From NCBI GenBank assembly GCA_019358895.1, contig JAHHIG010000010.1, positions 27,510 to 91,509 of the forward strand: a stretch of DNA of 64,000 nucleotides. Direction: 5' to 3'. Source of the stretch: Tildeniella nuda ZEHNDER 1965/U140 (GTDB lineage Bacteria > Cyanobacteriota > Cyanobacteriia > Leptolyngbyales > Leptolyngbyaceae). Of the stretch, positions 14,077-22,557 are shown in pieces (positions within the stretch are counted from its first letter, which is position 1; every line of letters begins with the position of its first letter). The notes under the pieces are model-generated. The model saw only the letters and a program-made list of their open reading frames with translations, made no database searches and was not told the origin of the DNA. Both the position numbers and the translations under genes were made by a program.

Positions 14077-15339
14077 TTAGCCAAAAATACTGCCAAAGAA
14101 CTCGACGGCTTCTTTCAACGACACAATGAATACATCAATCTCTTCACGCGTGTTGTAAAAGTAGAGGCTTGCTCGTGCAGTGGACTGTGCCCCGATGTGC
14201 CGATGCAAGGGTTGGGTGCAGTGATGTCCAGCCCGAATCGCCACGCCTGCCTGATCCAGAATCGTCGAGAGGTCGTGGGGATGCACATCACCAGCCGTGA
14301 ACGCTGCCAGCGCTGCCCGTCCGCTCCCATCGGCATTCGGTTTAGGACCATACAGCCTGAATGCAGGAATTTGTTGCAACTGCTGGAACAGGTAGCCAGT
14401 CAGCTCTTCTTCGTAAGCATGAATGGTATCCATGCCGATCGCGCTTAAATAATCCACTGCGGCACCCAGCGCGATCGCCTCGGCAATGGCAGGTGTTCCC
14501 GCTTCAAATTTGTGAGGCAGATCTGCGTAGGTCGCATGATCTAAAAACACATCCGCAATCATCTCGCCACCACCCAGAAAGGGAGGCATAGAGCGGAGGA
14601 GAGCCAATTTGCCGTAGAGAAAACCGATCCCCGTTGGGGCGCACATCTTATGCCCAGAGGCTACCAGCCAATCGCAGTCGATATCTTGTACGTCGATCGC
14701 CATGTGGGGGACGCTCTGGCAGGCATCAATGAGCACTTTTGCACCGTACTGGTGGGCGATCGCACAAATTTCTTTCACCGGGTTAATGCAGCCCAACGTG
14801 TTAGACACATGCACCACCGAAACCAGCTTCGTTTTATTCGACAGCAGTGACTTGAAGTGGTCTAGATCAAATTCTTCAGCTTCCGTTAGCTCAACGAACT
14901 TCAGCACTGCACCCGATCGCTGTGCCAGCAGTTGCCAGGGGATCAGGTTGCTGTGGTGCTCCATCACCGAGAGGATGATTTCATCGCCCTGCGTCACATT
15001 GGCATTCCCCCACGCATAGGCAACCAGATTAATCGCCTCACTCGCATTGCGGGTGTAGACAATCTCTTGCCGCGATGCCGCATTCACAAACGCCGCGACC
15101 TTATCCCGTGCTCCTTCATAGGCATCCGTTGCCCGTGAACTCAGGGTATGCACACCCCGATGCACGTTAGCGTTGTCGTGTTCGTAGTAATGGCGGAGGG
15201 CGTTGAGCACCGCGATCGGCTTTTGTGAAGTCGCCGCATTATCCAGATACACCAACGGCTTATCGTGAATCTGTTCGTTCAGAATCGGAAAATCAGCGCG
15301 AACTCCAGCAGCAAGGGGCTTGGTTTGAATGAGGGTCAT
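14077..15339 (-). CDS. sufS: SufS cysteine desulfurase
   Basis: [17 protein letters not shown] (PLP lysine), RAGHHCTQP; operon context. Confidence 0.97.
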
Positions 15340-15499: not shown

Positions 15500-16843
15500 T
15501 CACGCTTGCTGTTCACGCACGATCGCCGCCAATTTCTCTCTCAGCGACGCAACGGGAATTTCACGAATGACCTCATACGCAAAGGCGTAGGTCAACAATT
15601 TACGAGCGCTGTCTTCGTCGATGCCACGACTTTGCAGGTAAAAGACTTCATCGCTGTCGAGCTGGCTAACGGTTGCGCCGTGGGTACACTTCACATTGTC
15701 AGCCGTGATTTCGAGTTGGGGTTTGGTATCGACTCGTGCTTTCGGTGACAGCAACAGATTGCTGCTGAGTTGCTTTGCATCAGTCAGTTGAGCGGCTTTA
15801 GGGACGTAGACTTTGCCATTGAAGATAGCATGAGCGCGATCGTCCACAATGCACTTATGAATCTGATTGCTGCTGCCGTGGGGATGGGTATAGGCGATCG
15901 TGCTGTGCGTATCGGCTACCTGCTCACCATTGATGATCGTCAAGCCGTGCAACGTTGTTTCAGTCTGCTCTCCAGTGTGATGAACCTCTAAATTGTGGCG
16001 CGAGAGTTTTGCACCGAGGCTCACGGCATTGCAGGTATAGCGAGAATCCCTCGCTTGCGAAACAGCGGTTTTGCCAATATGAAATGCTTCGGCGCTATCA
16101 CGCTGGATGCGAGTATGGTTCACTTCAGCATTTTCACCAACCCAAATTTCTGTCACGGGATTAGCGAAATAAGCACCGTCGTAAAGCGTCACATACTCTT
16201 CAACAAGCGTTAGCTTGCTACCTGATTCCGCAATCACAATGCAGCGAGGATGAGCGATCGTGGGCTGTGTTGCGGTTGAAAGGTACAGAATTTGGATGGG
16301 TGATGCGATCGCCTGATTTTTTTGCACCCAAACAACTGCACCATCCGTCAAGCTGGCAGTATTCAGCGCCGTGAAGGTTTCTTCTGAACCCTGCTGTTTC
16401 GCTAGGTAGTTTGGCAAGTCGCTCAGGAGTTCTGCACCAGCCGCGAGACTTGTGACCATCACACCATCGGGCAAGTCATCTACACTCGACAACGCCGGAT
16501 CGTACTGTCCATCCACAAAAACTAGGCGACTACTGACCGCTTCTGGCAGAATGAACGGCTGGATCGCGTCAAAGCTCAGGGTGGGCGCTTGCTTACTGCC
16601 TGCCTGAAAGCGAATTTGCAAAAGATCTGATAGATCGGTAAAGCGCCATTCTTCGTCACGGGTGGACGGAATTGCGAGTTCTTGCACTCTGGCAGTGGCA
16701 CGATCGCGAATCTCTTTCATCCAGATCACCGACTCATCCAGGGCGGGACGCAAACTTAATAGTTGCTGGAGAGATGCAGCGCGATCGTTCTTAGCCTTAC
16801 CATTACCGACCACAATATCGGACACGGTTGATTGAATCGTCAT
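15500..16843 (-). CDS. sufD: SufD Fe-S assembly protein
   Basis: [49 protein letters not shown]. Confidence 0.96.
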
Positions 16844-17631
16844 CGTGCACCGACCTCCGCTGCTTCCTCTTCGCGTACCCAGTCGTAGCCACGCGCTTCC
16901 AGCTCTAGCGCCAGTTCTTTGCCGCCTGTGGTGAGAATGCGTCCGCCTTCCATGACGTGGACATAATCGGGAGTGATGTAGTCGAGCAGGCGCTGGTAGT
17001 GGGTGATGAGGACGATCGCATTTTCCGCATTCGCCAATTGATTCACCCCATTCGACACAATCTTGAGTGCATCAATGTCCAGACCCGAATCGGTTTCATC
17101 CAGAATGCCAAGCGTCGGCTCCAGCATCGCCATCTGCAGAATTTCGTTGCGCTTTTTCTCACCACCCGAAAAGCCTTCATTCAAGCTACGGCTGAGAAAT
17201 GCGGGATCCATTTTGACGATATCCAGCTTTTGCTTAACCAGATCATCAAAATCGAAGGCATCCAGTTCTTCTAAGCCCTGATGTTTGCGTTTGGAATTGT
17301 ACGCCACGCGCAAGAAATCTAAGTTGCTGACACCCGGAATTTCAATGGGGTATTGAAAGGCGAGAAAAATACCCGATCGTGCTCGTTCTTCTGCCTCTAA
17401 TTCCAGCAGATTTTTGCCCTGAAAGTGGATTTCTCCACCTGTCACGGTGTAATCAGGATGACCCGCCAGCACTTTAGAAAAGGTGCTTTTACCAGAGCCA
17501 TTGGGTCCCATAATCGCGTGAATTTCACCCGCTTTGACTTCCAGATTCAATCCTTTGAGGATCTGAATCCCATCCACTTCAGCGGTCAGATTTCGCACTG
17601 AAAGAATTACTTCACTATCGTCACGAATCAC
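16840..17631 (-). CDS. sufC: SufC ABC ATPase
   Basis: [45 protein letters not shown]. Confidence 0.97.
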
Positions 17632-17657: not shown

Positions 17658-18278
17658 TTACAGTTGTCCAATATGCTTCAAAATTGCCACAACACTGTAG
17701 AGATCATTTCCAGGATTACGAATTTCAAAGATCCTAGAAATTGCATACTGACTCACATTGCCTTGAACTAGCTTGACAAACATGAAGCTACCTCCCGTGA
17801 CGATCAAACCAAAACTAGGCTTGCTTGGGTGAGGATTTGCCAGCATATACGCCAACAATTGGGCAAGACCTGCTTCGATCGAGAAAGACGCTTCCTTCGA
17901 TTCGATCGCCATTACCCATAGCTGCTCTTTCAAGAGAATCAGATCTGCTTGCCCCCGAATAGTTATGCCCTCATCTTCGGCAGAAATTTCAACTGATCTT
18001 TCGGCTTGAATATGAAAGGGCGGCAAGAAGAAATTAGCAACGAACAAAACGGGACCAAGAATCGCAATTTGAACTGCTTTCTCTAACAAAGGTGGGTGGT
18101 CAATCAAATTGAAATACCCTTCTTGTACCTTATCCAGAAATTGCTTCTCTGCATCGGTAATGTCAGGCAATACATCTTGCCACTCTCGAAAAAATTGCTC
18201 ATCACGAATAAGCTGAAGCCCAAAATTATCAATTAAGTGGCGTAGAGTGACGTTTCTAGCTTGTAAGGTTTGAACCAT
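17658..18278 (-). CDS. HsdR_N-like PD-(D/E)XK nuclease domain protein
   Basis: RGQADLILL...AIESK...QLLAYM and GLIVTGGSFMF; widespread small cyanobacterial family. Confidence 0.75.
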   Translation of the reverse strand: MVQTLQARNVTLRHLIDNFGLQLIRDEQFFREWQDVLPDITDAEKQFLDKVQEGYFNLIDHPPLLEKAVQIAILGPVLFVANFFLPPFHIQAERSVEISAEDEGITIRGQADLILLKEQLWVMAIESKEASFSIEAGLAQLLAYMLANPHPSKPSFGLIVTGGSFMFVKLVQGNVSQYAISRIFEIRNPGNDLYSVVAILKHIGQL

Positions 18279-18279
18279 T

Positions 18280-19299
18280 TCATTCGCCCCGCATCAACAA
18301 CTCTGTGGTAGTGGCTGGATTTTTCCGCAAGGCTGACAGCGGCACATATCGTTGACCTTGAGTAAAAGCGTAGGGTCTACCCGCCTCATTCTTAAGGTCG
18401 TTTTTTATAGCTTGTGTCAGCTTAATTGTATCTGGCGAAGTGGGAGAAGATAGGAAAAACACCTTTAATTTGACACCATATCTAGAGCTGCTGTGTTTTT
18501 TAAGCTGCTTAACCAATTGAAGCAGATCCTGCTTCGTTTCTAACGAAAGTTGAGCCTCTTCAATCGCTTCTTCTGTTAAAGTAACATCTTCAATCGGTTT
18601 GCCAATGATCTTAGGAATGTATTGATCGATCACGCCGCCGTGATAAAAGCCGATATATTCAACAGGCTGAAACGAGCGGTTGGGCTGGCAAACGTAAACT
18701 GAAAAGCTTCGATAGTCCTGAATTGCTGATCTGGCTGGAACAATCAGAACTGCATCAGACTTGCCACTGTTGATCAATCTTTCAGCCAGTAGCATTTGTA
18801 CCAGTTCACGGAGCAAGAAGCGCTCCTGTTCACTGGGAAGCGGCAAGTCTGACGTTAGCCATGATTCGTCTGTAGCAGTGATTTCAGCGATCGCATCATT
18901 GAGAGCGTTAAAACTTGCCCAGACAATCAAATCCGAATTCAACTCCTTAATCACTACAGGTGTCTCATAATCCGGTGTCAGAACAAGCAGCTTTTTTTTG
19001 TAAAAATTAGACAGTTTTAAGGCTTCTAAATGGTCTTCCAGTTGCTTCTTCACAACTGAATTCTGAACGACTTTTGTTTCGATTAAATAGGGAAATGAGG
19101 CTTGTATTGCGCCATCAGGAATTGATTTATCAGACTTAATCTGATTCTTGATCACCAACAGAGGCAGATTTGGCTCTTCACACAAGATCTGCAAGATGCG
19201 CTCTACCAATGCAAAAGAAATTCGCTCAAATACTGCAAGAATACTTGCGGTAACGCGATTTTCCCCTTGGCTGTAGCGCGAAAACAGTGGGTTAGGCAT
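18280..19299 (-). CDS. Putative PD-(D/E)XK nuclease with an additional C-terminal domain
   Basis: SQGENRVTASIL, IPDGAI-x-LIETK...QLEDH; AT-rich coding sequence. Confidence 0.65.
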   Translation of the reverse strand: MPNPLFSRYSQGENRVTASILAVFERISFALVERILQILCEEPNLPLLVIKNQIKSDKSIPDGAIQASFPYLIETKVVQNSVVKKQLEDHLEALKLSNFYKKKLLVLTPDYETPVVIKELNSDLIVWASFNALNDAIAEITATDESWLTSDLPLPSEQERFLLRELVQMLLAERLINSGKSDAVLIVPARSAIQDYRSFSVYVCQPNRSFQPVEYIGFYHGGVIDQYIPKIIGKPIEDVTLTEEAIEEAQLSLETKQDLLQLVKQLKKHSSSRYGVKLKVFFLSSPTSPDTIKLTQAIKNDLKNEAGRPYAFTQGQRYVPLSALRKNPATTTELLMRGE

Positions 19300-19322
19300 T
19301 AGATAGAGCGTTAAAAAGAAAC

Positions 19323-19775
19323 TTACATCAACATCATGCGGGCAACATTGGGGCTTTCAGGATTCACGATTAAACGTTCGCGTTTTGGATCAACTAATAC
19401 GTCCATCCCTTCCATTGGCATCGCTCCTAATAAAACAGTCCTGGAGTTTGGAACCACTAATGCCTCAACGCTAGTGCGCCGATTCTGAAATCTCACTTCA
19501 ACTGGACCGACCACTTCAAAGGTTGATGCTGATCTGTCTGCCAATTCTGCTTCAAGCTCAGTTACTTTTTGCAAATCCAATTGTTGCTTGACAAATTCTG
19601 GAATTGTAAGCATGGTCGCACCGCTATCCACCATTGCCCGAACTGTACAGCGATGTATCTGATCCACTTGAAGACGACCGCGCCGAAAAAAGGCTAAATC
19701 ATCGCCACTGAGCAGTTCAATCTCAGCAAATACTAAACCCATGCTTGCGAATGCCATTGGTTGAGTTCCTTCCAA
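19323..19775 (-). CDS. Clan AA (retropepsin-like) aspartic protease; probable start at 19742
   Basis: AMVDSGATMLTIP catalytic motif; VLLGAMPMEGMDVLVDP. Confidence 0.88.
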   Translation of the reverse strand: MEGTQPMAFASMGLVFAEIELLSGDDLAFFRRGRLQVDQIHRCTVRAMVDSGATMLTIPEFVKQQLDLQKVTELEAELADRSASTFEVVGPVEVRFQNRRTSVEALVVPNSRTVLLGAMPMEGMDVLVDPKRERLIVNPESPNVARMMLM

Positions 19776-19787
19776 AAGGACGTTCCC

Positions 19788-21224
19788 TTACCCGACGCTG
19801 CCTTCAAGCTTGAGGCTGAGGAGGCGATCGGCTTCTACGGCAAACTCCATCGGCAACTGGTTGAACACATCTTTGCAAAAGCCGCTAATCATCATAGAGA
19901 TTGCGTCTTCGGAGGAGATGCCGCGCTGGGAGAAGTAAAACAACTGGTCTTCGCCAATTTTGGACGTGGACGCTTCGTGTTCTACCTTGCCTTTGTTGTT
20001 CTGCACCTGGATGTAGGGGAAGGTATTCGCCTGGGCATTATCGCCAATCAGCATAGAATCGCACTGCGAATAGTTCCGTGCGCCCGTTGCCTTCGGACCA
20101 ATTTTGACCAAGCCGCGATAGCTATTTTTCGACTGTCCCGCCGAAATGCCTTTGGAAATAATGGTGCTGCGGGTGTTCTTGCCAATGTGCACCATCTTCG
20201 TACCCGTATCCGCCTGCTGGTGATGGTTCGTCAGCGCGACGGAGTAGAATTCGCCCACCGAGTTATCGCCGACCAGCACACAACTGGGGTACTTCCATGT
20301 GATGGCAGAACCCGTTTCTACCTGTGTCCAGGAGATCTTAGAGTTTACGCCCTGACATAACCCACGCTTGGTCACGAAGTTATAGATGCCGCCTTTGCCG
20401 TTGGCATCGCCTGCATACCAATTCTGCACGGTGGAGTATTTGATGTCGGCATTGTCTAATGCGACCAGTTCCACCACAGCGGCGTGAAGCTGATTGGTGT
20501 CGAACATTGGCGCGGTACAGCCTTCCAGGTAGCTCACGGAACTGCCTTCTTCGGCAACAATCAGCGTCCGTTCAAATTGACCCGAATCGCCGTTGTTGAT
20601 GCGGAAGTAGGTAGAAAGCTCCATCGGGCATTTAGTGCCTCTAGGAATGTAGACGAAGGAACCATCGCTGAAGACCGCGGAATTGAGTGCCGCAAAGAAA
20701 TTATCGCCAGCAGGAACGACGCTGCCAAGATACTTCTGGATCAGTTCAGGATGCTCTTGTACGGCTTCGGCAAACGAGCAGAAGATGACACCGTCTTCGG
20801 CTAATTTTTCTTTGAAGGTGGTGGCGATCGAAACGCTGTCAAAAATGGCATCCACTGCCACATTCGTGAGGCGCTTTTGTTCAGAGAGCGAAATACCCAA
20901 CTTCTCGAAGGTGTCCAGTAGTTCAGGATCGACTTCTTCGAGGCTCTTCTTCTTCTCCTTGAGCTTGGGTGCAGAGTAGTAGACGATGTTTTGGTAGTCG
21001 ATCGCCGGGTAGCTTGCATTCTGCCAGTTTGGCTCCGTCATTTTCAACCATTGACGGTATGCCTTCAGCCGAAACTCCAGCATGAACGGCGGCTCTTCTT
21101 TCTTTGCCGAAATCAGCCGCACGACATCTTCGCTCAGCCCACGCGGAATCGCATCGGACTCAATGTCAGTCACGAAGCCGTACTTGTAGGGCTGGTTAAC
21201 TAAGTTTTGAACAGTTGGACTCAT
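19788..21224 (-). CDS. sufB: SufB Fe-S assembly protein
   Basis: [48 protein letters not shown]. Confidence 0.97.
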
Positions 21225-21282: not shown

Positions 21283-21675
21283 TCAGGCATGTTGCTGATT
21301 CGTTACCGTTCTAATTTCGTCGAAGGTAATGTCTTGCTGATCGCCTGCAAAGTCATGGTCAGGCGTGAGAAATAGCAGGCAATGGCACTCTTTGCGTTCA
21401 CGCATGGGCACACAGGGACAGTTCCAGTAAGCCGCTTCAACCTCAGCCGCCTTATCTTCGTAATGACGACAGGGACAAAGGGGCGAACCTAAATCATCCT
21501 TGTGCTTTGCCAAGCCTTCAATCACTACGGCTGTCACCCCAGGATCGACACAAAAGTAGGTGCCAGTCCGCTTTGCGTAGGTGATGGAAAAGTGCCTCAT
21601 CGCTTCGAGGCTTTTGTCGGTAGATTGGGCAGCTTTTGGGGGTTGAGTCTCTGAGTTCATGAGGCAGCGCGACAA
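21283..21675 (-). CDS. ftrC: Ferredoxin-thioredoxin reductase catalytic subunit
   Basis: CPCRHY, CPCVPM and CHC cysteine motifs. Confidence 0.95.
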   Translation of the reverse strand: MSRCLMNSETQPPKAAQSTDKSLEAMRHFSITYAKRTGTYFCVDPGVTAVVIEGLAKHKDDLGSPLCPCRHYEDKAAEVEAAYWNCPCVPMRERKECHCLLFLTPDHDFAGDQQDITFDEIRTVTNQQHA

Positions 21676-21702: not shown

Positions 21703-21756
21703 CAACATAGATGTTGCTTAACTACATTGTAAAGTACTTTAGCAACAACGTTGTTG
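21703..21756. promoter_or_regulatory. Two SufR operators, CAAC-N6-GTTG
   Basis: CAACATAGATGTTG (21703-21716) and CAACAACGTTGTTG (21743-21756), 26 bp apart, between the divergent sufR and ftrC-sufB; matches the described cyanobacterial SufR site layout. Confidence 0.9.
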
Positions 21757-21903
21757 CTAAAGTCGAGATTGTCTTAAATTTAGTACGCTTTAATAGAATG
21801 CGATCGCGCATTTAGGTTGATGCAGAGTTGCTATTTCTGAAACGATCGCTACCCTGTGCAAACCTAGGTGAATCTAGCTGTCAGCTTTACCGCTGGGAAA
21901 AGA

Positions 21904-22557
21904 ATGACAACTGTCCAACAACCCTCTACAAAGCAGGATATCCTGCACCACTTGCTCAAGCAAGGACAGTCAACAGCGCAAGAGTTGGCTGAACGGTTAC
22001 ACATCAGTTCACAGGGCATTCGACGACACTTGAAAGATTTGGAAGCTGATGGATTGATTGTCCATCAAGTATTACAGACGGGGATGGGTCGCCCTAACTA
22101 CAGCTATGCACTCAGTCAAGCTGGGCGCGATCGCTTTCCCGATCGCTACGATGACTTTGCCGTTTCGCTATTAGATACGCTGGCAGCAACGGTAGGTGCC
22201 GATCAAATGGGTTCGATCTTGCGGAAACAGTGGGAACGCAAGGCAATGGAGTACCGCGATCGCATTGGCAATGGTTCACTCAAAAATCGTGTGCATCAAC
22301 TTGTAGAATTGCGTCGTGCTGAGGGCTACATGGCTGAGTGCCATGCGATCGACGCAAACGGAGTCGTCACTAGCGAAGGCACCCGTTTTATTTTGACGGA
22401 ATATAACTGCGCCATTTCCCATATTGCCGAATCGTTTCCTAGCGTTTGCGGGCATGAGCTGGAAATGTTTGCAGTAGCGCTGGGTTGCACCGTTGAACGC
22501 ACCCATTGGCTCGTGAATGGTGAACACCGCTGCGGCTATTTGATCCAGCCCAAGTAG
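21904..22557 (+). CDS. sufR: SufR, Fe-S-binding repressor
   Basis: N-terminal HTH with GMGRP; EYNCAI, SVCGHEL, GEHRCGY. Confidence 0.95.
   Translation: MTTVQQPSTKQDILHHLLKQGQSTAQELAERLHISSQGIRRHLKDLEADGLIVHQVLQTGMGRPNYSYALSQAGRDRFPDRYDDFAVSLLDTLAATVGADQMGSILRKQWERKAMEYRDRIGNGSLKNRVHQLVELRRAEGYMAECHAIDANGVVTSEGTRFILTEYNCAISHIAESFPSVCGHELEMFAVALGCTVERTHWLVNGEHRCGYLIQPK

Follow-up and report, generated by a model that had tools for sequence, protein, structure and literature searches.

Between sufB and sufC of the filamentous cyanobacterium Tildeniella nuda ZEHNDER 1965/U140 (Leptolyngbyaceae) lie three additional genes, which we call AspP, P339 and N206 and which are predicted to code for an aspartic protease and two nucleases. 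They were analyzed within a stretch of 64,000 nucleotides (contig JAHHIG010000010.1, positions 27,510 to 91,509), hereafter the window. The sufBCDS genes have been described as a single, SufR-repressed operon of essential genes (PMC7058544). With moderate confidence, we interpret the insert as the filling of an old, exchangeable slot for gene cassettes, akin to a "minimal mobile element", at the sufB-sufC junction of Leptolyngbya-type cyanobacteria. The slot rather than the trio is the unit, and AspP, P339 and N206 are separate passengers. A literature search found no earlier description of cyanobacterial genes located between sufB and sufC. The slot genes and their two flanks are as follows, in coordinates of the window:

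19788-21224, minus strand: sufB, the conserved gene to the left of the slot, identified as an open reading frame (ORF) and by its relatives.
19323-19757, minus strand: AspP, matching PF13650 and carrying a DSGA motif; its ORF covers 19323-19775 if a TTG start is used.
18280-19299, minus strand: P339, 339 residues, with a predicted N-terminal PD-(D/E)XK domain and a C-terminal PUA-like domain.
17658-18278, minus strand: N206, 206 residues, a predicted HsdR-N-type PD-(D/E)XK protein next to sufC.
16840-17631, minus strand: sufC, the conserved gene to the right of the slot, with a GTG start 26 nt past the N206 stop codon.

The insert totals 2.1 kb and contains these three ORFs only. The initial annotation of this DNA had reported three extra genes on one strand between sufB and sufC, with intergenic gaps of 12, 23, 1 and 26 nt, and we reproduced both the arrangement and the gaps. 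The first value holds for the TTG start of AspP, but the gap from sufB grows to 30 nt when the likelier ATG start is used. The inserts were also said to be richer in AT than the suf genes, and they are, with GC contents of 0.42 to 0.46 against 0.50 to 0.54 for sufB, sufC, sufD and sufS; at third codon positions the corresponding values (GC3) are 0.40 to 0.44 and 0.52 to 0.65. The proposed families, namely, a protease, a PD-(D/E)XK protein and an HsdR_N-like nuclease, were broadly borne out by the Pfam, motif and fold matches described below.

A profile scan with P339, using one genome per species, returned 19 loci, and P339 or a remnant of it was found between sufB and sufC in all 13 cyanobacterial loci among them. 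We surveyed the occupancy of the junction by anchoring on SufC and examining the DNA upstream of it, both in the relatives and in 60 of the approximately 150 genomes retrieved by a class-wide SufC search. At least one cassette or cassette remnant was present in 50 of the 102 species sampled, and the gap was empty in 46, where it measures from -4 to 266 nt with a median of 99. Two species have an unexplained gap of 370 to 390 nt, and four could not be resolved. When occupied, the slot is 0.4 to 2.5 kb long. Its left flank is highly conserved, the amino-acid identity of sufB being 85 to 100% across the surveyed species. At one locus (L136, genome G019), sufB matches are split between two frames, covering residues 5 to 42 and 41 to 478; this apparent frameshift is most likely an error of the draft assembly.

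The slot holds at least seven gene types across about 100 species, in addition to the empty state, and sufB and sufC flank every occupied locus. N206 is the most frequent occupant and nearly always adjoins sufC; it is the sole intact cassette in eight species and is represented by remnants alone in nine. AspP and N206 occur together in four species and in two further arrays with an additional gene, and P339 and N206 occur together in four species, plus two in which P339 is a remnant. The full trio is found in the same order in five genomes, those of the source and of loci L014, L017, L063 and L078. P339 alone, AspP with P339 (in Alkalinema) and AspP alone were also observed; in Leptolyngbya sp. 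NIES-3755 and in a metagenome contig of 6.76 Mb, AspP by itself fills the slot. The remaining cargo consists of Uma2 genes (four species), GNAT acetyltransferase genes (two), a 137-codon gene of no known family (one) and mscL (one). The latter, at locus L138 of genome G027, which belongs to another family, matches PF01741 with an E value of 5e-44, and its presence shows that the slot also takes ordinary housekeeping-type genes. The order sufB-AspP-P339-N206-sufC is kept in about 20 multigene arrays; in the two exceptions, a very divergent N206 is placed first.

Intact copies of the three genes are under purifying selection. The ratios of nonsynonymous to synonymous substitution rates (dN/dS) are 0.03 to 0.16 for N206, 0.05 to 0.27 for P339 and 0.08 to 0.15 for AspP, next to 0.006 to 0.026 for sufB. 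The initial annotation had suggested that the three genes may form a protease-activated or stress-induced defense module, and had taken their co-occurrence elsewhere as one point to check. Four other species do have the trio in this order, its three genes are all intact and constrained, and a single nucleotide separates the P339 stop from the N206 start, which suggests translational coupling of these two genes. Against a single module, however, AspP with N206, P339 with N206, AspP with P339, and each gene alone all occur intact and under purifying selection, so that the genes behave as independent units even though the trio itself recurs. Their counts in the source genus differ, with N206 in 6 of 12 genomes, AspP in 2 and P339 in 1. 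Their amino-acid distances also follow those of sufB to different degrees, with rho values of 0.73 for P339, 0.58 for N206 and 0.29 for AspP, suggesting that P339 is mostly inherited vertically and AspP least so. Nor did PADLOC return any known defense system. Thus, the independent assortment of the three genes does not support a protease-activated module, which we regard as very improbable.

The insert lacks the signatures of the usual vehicles of gene mobility. We found no terminal repeats, target duplications or attC-like sites at the slot, only short imperfect repeats of the kind expected by chance, and no integrase or transposase ORF at the insert. The gaps of 1 to 30 nt leave no room for att sites. 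Integron gene cassettes were ruled out on the basis of these gaps, together with the lack of inverted-repeat attC sites and of an integrase ORF. Nor is the insert recognizable as a transposon, no terminal repeats or target duplications being present.

The history of N206 departs from that of its hosts. In the N206 tree, the five sequences of the source genus fall into three clades, two of them well supported, and each clade also contains sequences from other genera, and even from other families. Monophyly of the genus was rejected for N206 by the approximately unbiased (AU) test, with a difference in log likelihood (delta lnL) of 162 and a p-AU of 2.5e-19, whereas sufB, for the same taxa, gives a tree in agreement with taxonomy. 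Similarly, a tight Phormidesmis clade in the sufB tree holds three divergent N206 lineages. Synonymous divergence (dS) was compared between N206 and the adjacent sufB in four close pairs of genomes. It was lower for N206 in three of them (0.41 versus 1.42, 0.31 versus 0.57, and 0.28 versus 0.49), which points to exchange more recent than speciation, and the order was reversed in the fourth (0.32 versus 0.21).

These data bear on a strictly vertical scenario, in which an ancestral array of AspP, P339 and N206 was eroded differently in each lineage and no horizontal exchange took place. The constant gene order, the many remnants, the correlation between P339 and sufB distances and the match of several N206 clades to host clades (e.g., g36 and g39) are all in line with it, and the correlation and the constant order indicate that part of the pattern is indeed vertical. 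As the whole explanation it is very improbable. It conflicts with the AU test, with the three N206 lineages of Phormidesmis and with the lower dS of N206 in three of four pairs. In addition, sister species differ by a cassette in one and, in the other, a conserved "empty" spacer of 100 nt that deletion could not recreate.

The latter situation is seen in the source genus, of which we compared 12 genomes. Six have a conserved empty spacer of about 100 nt, and six carry N206, frameshifted in one and partial at contig ends in two. AspP is present in two of the genomes and P339 in the source genome only. Carriers and noncarriers interleave on the trees of sufB, of sufS and of an unlinked gene for a von Willebrand factor A (vWA) domain protein; for instance, the sufB genes of G001, which carries N206, and of G005, whose slot is empty, are 95% identical. 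The flanks themselves differ little between the two states. The sufC start codon is GTG in the six occupied alleles and ATG in the six empty ones, and its first base is the sole position that separates carriers from noncarriers in 330 nt of flank. Apart from this start codon, we found no "immunity" polymorphism between carriers and noncarriers at the end of sufB or the start of sufC, and sliding-window identities next to the slot revealed no long gradient of coconversion. In G003, the flanks appear mosaic: the last 60 nt of sufB are nearest to G010 and the first 39 nt of sufC to the source genome, and the remainders of both genes are nearest to G005 and G001.

Two further features of these loci were noted. 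The empty spacers at L124, L126, L128 and L130 contain a hairpin-like element, CCTGG...CCAGG followed by a run of T, just before the ribosome-binding site of sufC; it might act as an attenuator and so fix the ratio of sufB to sufC. The 5' half of sufD (positions 16000-16843 of the window; loci L123-L131) is mosaic among the congeners, with nucleotide identities of 46 to 66% in comparison with 85 to 95% in sufC and sufS, and that of G010 is nearest to G015 (Kovacikia). Recombination in the suf operon extends beyond the cassette slot.

Taken as an exchangeable slot, the locus would work as follows. Three promoterless genes, each from a lineage found almost only at the sufB-sufC junction, would be read through from the SufR-controlled suf promoter, and each would be kept, lost or allowed to decay independently of the others. 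Alleles of the slot, the empty one included, would pass between species by homologous recombination in the highly conserved sufB and sufC flanks, without mobility genes of their own. The specificity of the cargo lineages for the slot is expected if the cargo moves only through the flanks. The essential flanks would in turn shelter the cargo from large deletions. The initial annotation had considered such protection by an essential operon, and this proposal is supported by the presence of foreign-looking genes inside an otherwise contiguous essential operon, with no promoter or terminator signal above chance. The cargo would consist of selfish and/or defensive nuclease genes that act outside Fe-S assembly; P339 and N206 may be defensive, P339 in a type IV-like manner, or selfish, and we keep both possibilities.

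The expression of the insert was addressed through the control region and the remainder of the operon, whose features are as follows:

21868-22557, plus strand: sufR, the divergently oriented repressor gene, identified as an ORF, with tblastn orthologues at the same position in all related loci.
21703-21716 and 21743-21756: two CAAC-N6-GTTG palindromes in the sufR/suf control region, candidate SufR operators.
21283-21675, minus strand: a gene resembling that of the ferredoxin-thioredoxin reductase (FTR) catalytic chain, placed first in the suf transcription unit (PF02943, E value of 2.2e-42).
15500-16843, minus strand: sufD, identified as an ORF.
14077-15339, minus strand: sufS, identified as an ORF.

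CAAC-N6-GTTG is the form of the SufR operator, as reportedly described by Shen et al. in 2007, and the palindromes at 21703-21756 are probably operators. The motif occurs six times in the 64 kb, where 1.35 occurrences are expected, and two of the six lie in the intergenic region of 192 nt on the sufR side. One promoter-like match overlaps these palindromes. Over the suf region as a whole, promoter-like matches (10, versus 8.2±3.2 in shuffled sequence) and terminator-like matches (7, versus 9.0±3.1) are not in excess, and no terminator-like site was found on the coding strand of the inserts. A scan of the operon against Rfam matched no RNA family. As sufCDS has no visible promoter, AspP, P339 and N206 are very probably cotranscribed with the suf genes under the control of SufR, and expression of sufD and sufS would depend on transcription running through the inserts. 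The FTR-like gene lies directly behind the SufR-type palindromes, and it has the same position upstream of sufB in nearly all related loci that we examined; this paralogue may be a redox sensor wired to Fe-S biogenesis.

Probable control by SufR raises the question of whether the inserted genes are themselves accessory factors of Fe-S biogenesis or of the response to oxidative or iron stress, for example in stress-linked DNA repair. Their linkage to suf is stable over several cyanobacterial families, and their probable expression from the SufR-controlled promoter would suit such a role. However, all three genes are absent from about half of the related species, 6 of the 12 congeners among them, noncyanobacterial P339 homologues have no suf genes nearby, and the composition of the inserts is foreign. 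We consider a function in Fe-S metabolism very improbable. Fe-S cluster-binding cysteines of the Cas4/AddB type were ruled out as well, with no conserved cysteine in N206 and one in P339.

AspP is predicted to be a retropepsin-like aspartic protease of clan AA. It scores 33.7 bits against PF13650 (Asp_protease_2), above the cutoff of 24.3, and narrowly misses TIGR03698 (clan_AA_DTGF), with 54.8 bits for a cutoff of 57.35. Its catalytic motif is DSGA instead of DTGF, at residues 50 to 53 of the 150-residue ORF. Two starts are available, a TTG at 19775 that yields 150 residues and an ATG at 19757 that yields 144 (MAFASMG...) and is preceded by GGAAGGA 9 nt upstream. The ATG is most likely the true start, because the homologues have 144 residues and the alignments begin there. 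The source genome has a single copy of AspP, and a scan of AspP against PADLOC-DB 2.0 gave no match.

N206 is predicted to be a PD-(D/E)XK nuclease and a distant relative, not a curated member, of the HSDR_N family. Its own scores against HSDR_N, PDDEXK_1 and Cas4 are weak, that for HSDR_N (PF04313) being 14.2 bits, under the gathering cutoff of 25.1. HSDR_N is nevertheless matched by 12 of 15 N206 relatives, with E values of up to 1 and a best value of 1.5e-5. In the motif D112...E126-x-K128, the aspartate shows a conservation of at least 90%, and the glutamate and lysine never vary. PADLOC-DB 2.0 returned weak matches of N206 to Cas4 (E value of 2.7e-4) and PD_DExK (1.4e-3), with no CRISPR context. 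A profile search of the Protein Data Bank (PDB) with N206 gave a chance match only, and its single-sequence structure model was too poor for use, with a predicted local distance difference test score (pLDDT) of 46.

The N206 family is a multicopy one in cyanobacteria, with up to 19 members per genome. Nearly all of the closest matches to N206 are suf-linked copies, at 53% identity or more, and the other paralogues do not exceed 46%. Among the congeners, genomes with N206 in the suf slot have one to nine family members, and four of the six noncarriers have none. A paralogue with 44% identity to N206 lies just downstream of a gene for a vWA domain protein in the source genome (contig C35, 79460-80065; L008, 5440-6066, minus strand). 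G000, G001, G003 and G010, each with N206 in the suf slot, have this vWA-site copy, and none of the six genomes with an empty slot does (loci L140-L150). In two other genera, tandem pairs of N206 genes are found right upstream of sufC (G017:C68:27623-28885 and G021:C210:5945-7215), with 53 to 57% identity to N206 of the source genome. The N206 paralogues that we sampled are often codirectional with neighboring housekeeping genes, at distances of 4 to 40 nt. Nesting inside transcription units thus looks like a habit of the family.

The P339 family is uncharacterized. There are 906 homologues, and among the 120 matches listed, none has a function name or a Pfam domain. P339 itself matched nothing in Pfam, NCBIfam, PADLOC-DB 2.0 or the PDB sequences. 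In an alignment of 16 sequences, no variation is seen at D62, E74 or K76, nor in the block YxCQPNRxF...FY, which is rich in aromatic residues. An AlphaFold model built on this alignment, with a mean pLDDT of 80.5, was used in Foldseek searches. It matched, with an E value of 1e-8 across 260 columns, a phage "PD-(D/E)XK nuclease superfamily protein", and its best PDB matches were YTH domains, PUA-like TTHA0113, MspJI and VcaM4I, with E values of 0.014 to 0.3 and probabilities of up to 0.93. The prediction of a PD-(D/E)XK nuclease domain in the N-terminal half is well supported by motif and model. That of a PUA-like domain (YTH/ASCH/EVE-like) in the C-terminal half is a lead; this domain is possibly a reader of modified bases. 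In this organization, a predicted PD-(D/E)XK nuclease joined to a PUA-like beta-barrel with conserved aromatic residues, and in its solitary occurrence, P339 resembles the type IV restriction enzymes MspJI (4f0p) and VcaM4I (6yex), but it shares no sequence similarity with them, and its two domains are arranged in the reverse order relative to MspJI. P339 is accordingly a candidate for a solitary type IV, i.e., modification-dependent, restriction enzyme.

Outside cyanobacteria, P339 homologues occur in Anaerolineae, Bacteroidales, Cyclobacterium and Chlorobiota, with 36 to 49% identity. They too are solitary, with variable surroundings and no suf genes nearby, and no methyltransferase gene adjoins P339 in any context that we saw. 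The neighbors include a ParE toxin gene (L025, 349-648), a reverse-transcriptase-like ORF that by eye is of the group II intron type (L026, 1652-2944) and a PDDEXK_1 nuclease gene (L023, about 2059-2735). These appear to be typical variable or mobile neighborhoods.

The presence of predicted nucleases in the slot suggests another way in which it could be filled. N206 might be a selfish gene of the free-standing homing endonuclease type, perhaps along with P339 and the Uma2 genes, and the protease and GNAT genes would be hitchhikers. The nuclease would cut a sufB-sufC allele without cassette, repair of the break would copy the cassette into it, and in a polyploid cyanobacterium the remaining chromosome copies could then be converted from the first. 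Several observations agree with this scheme: intact, degenerate and empty states coexist at one fixed site, the N206 tree is unlike the host tree, the catalytic residues are conserved and purifying selection is strong, and extremely conserved genes lie on either side of the target. The near all-or-none distribution of the N206 family among congeners, the second fixed site occupied in four carriers and in none of the empty-slot genomes, and the short, apparently cotransferred flank tracts of G003 are in line with it as well. However, cleavage of the empty allele is a supposition, and with the sufC start codon as the sole carrier-specific position of the flanks, no protective change of the target site is evident. 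N206 has no recognizable sequence-specific DNA-binding module, and nonnuclease genes, such as AspP alone or mscL, occupy the same slot. Moreover, the slot genes have no promoters, and it is difficult to see how they would be expressed from incoming DNA ahead of integration. We hold homing to be the main rival of the exchangeable slot, a possible but rather unlikely origin of the pattern. Equally unlikely is a broader form of the idea, that the sufB-sufC junction is a general homing target for nucleases of unrelated folds, here two PD-(D/E)XK families and Uma2, which would cut conserved suf DNA such that, in polyploid cyanobacteria, one converted chromosome copy could convert the others.

We return to the exchangeable slot, against which several points must be set. 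The sample of 102 species is biased, as 14 loci were reached through P339 or N206 and the others belong to the species closest to the source by SufC similarity. P339 distances track those of sufB fairly well, and the constant order of AspP, P339 and N206 is equally expected from a single ancestral array with differential loss. The switches in the G003 flanks are short windows, with 4 versus 9 and 5 versus 12 mismatches, and are therefore suggestive only. As for the cargo, the nuclease activity of P339 and N206 is predicted from sequence, the PUA-like assignment in P339 comes from weak Foldseek scores (E values of about 1e-2) and stays a lead, and PADLOC-DB 2.0 finds no known defense system for AspP, P339 or N206. 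Finally, we infer cotranscription across the inserts from the arrangement of the genes and their signals.

The closest parallel is provided by the minimal mobile elements of Neisseria (Saunders and Snyder 2002 and Snyder et al. 2007, as described in PMC3082526). As in those elements, two conserved genes of an essential operon flank different whole-gene cassettes, or none, depending on the strain or species, there is no integrase, transposase or terminal repeat, the cargo often consists of restriction-type nucleases, and alleles would be exchanged through homologous recombination in the flanks. The classic site, between pheS and pheT in an essential operon, holds a type II restriction-modification system (PMC3082526). 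The suf slot differs in that it spans genera and several families rather than strains of one species, in that it can hold as many as three cassettes one after another, always in much the same order, and in that its cargo lineages are almost slot-specific and decayed remnants are common.

T4-type phages offer a second comparison, with the free-standing homing endonuclease genes of the seg and mob types, such as mobE (PMC2790892, PMC2988022). Both systems have nuclease genes in short gaps between conserved genes, with a patchy distribution, degenerate copies and gene trees unlike host trees, as in the cyclical model of invasion, decay and loss of homing genes; the short switches in G003 may reflect coconversion of flanks as well. 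Yet the fold is of the HsdR-N-type PD-(D/E)XK class here and GIY-YIG or HNH there, and the suf slot lies in a bacterial chromosome and is shared by nonnuclease genes.

Defense-island hotspots, as known in E. coli, Pseudomonas and Vibrio, usually lie between operons, extend over many kilobases and contain integrases or mobile elements. They resemble the suf slot in having variable accessory or defense content at a fixed place between core genes, but the slot is promoterless, measures 0.4 to 2.5 kb and sits inside an essential operon.

Although cyanobacterial sufBCDS is regarded as an operon that is fixed and essential (PMC7058544), it carries one to three genes in its middle, mostly coding for predicted nucleases, in about half of the species sampled from a large group of filamentous cyanobacteria. 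These inserts would have to be transcribed whenever sufCDS is made. Polymorphism of the slot is to be expected by annotators of Leptolyngbya-type strains and by anyone engineering the suf locus or its flanks in them. The slot also brings to light three uncharacterized protein lineages with clear catalytic residues, of which the P339 family, with more than 900 members, may represent a new type of modification-dependent nuclease. It bears on the question of whether the gaps of essential operons are preferred targets of homing-type nucleases; were the sufB-sufC junction a general homing target, this would amount to a gene drive acting among the chromosome copies of one bacterial cell, and lodged in an essential operon. 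The sufB-sufC slot would thus offer a natural and well-sampled system in which to follow how promoterless selfish or defensive genes persist and move by means of their flanks alone.

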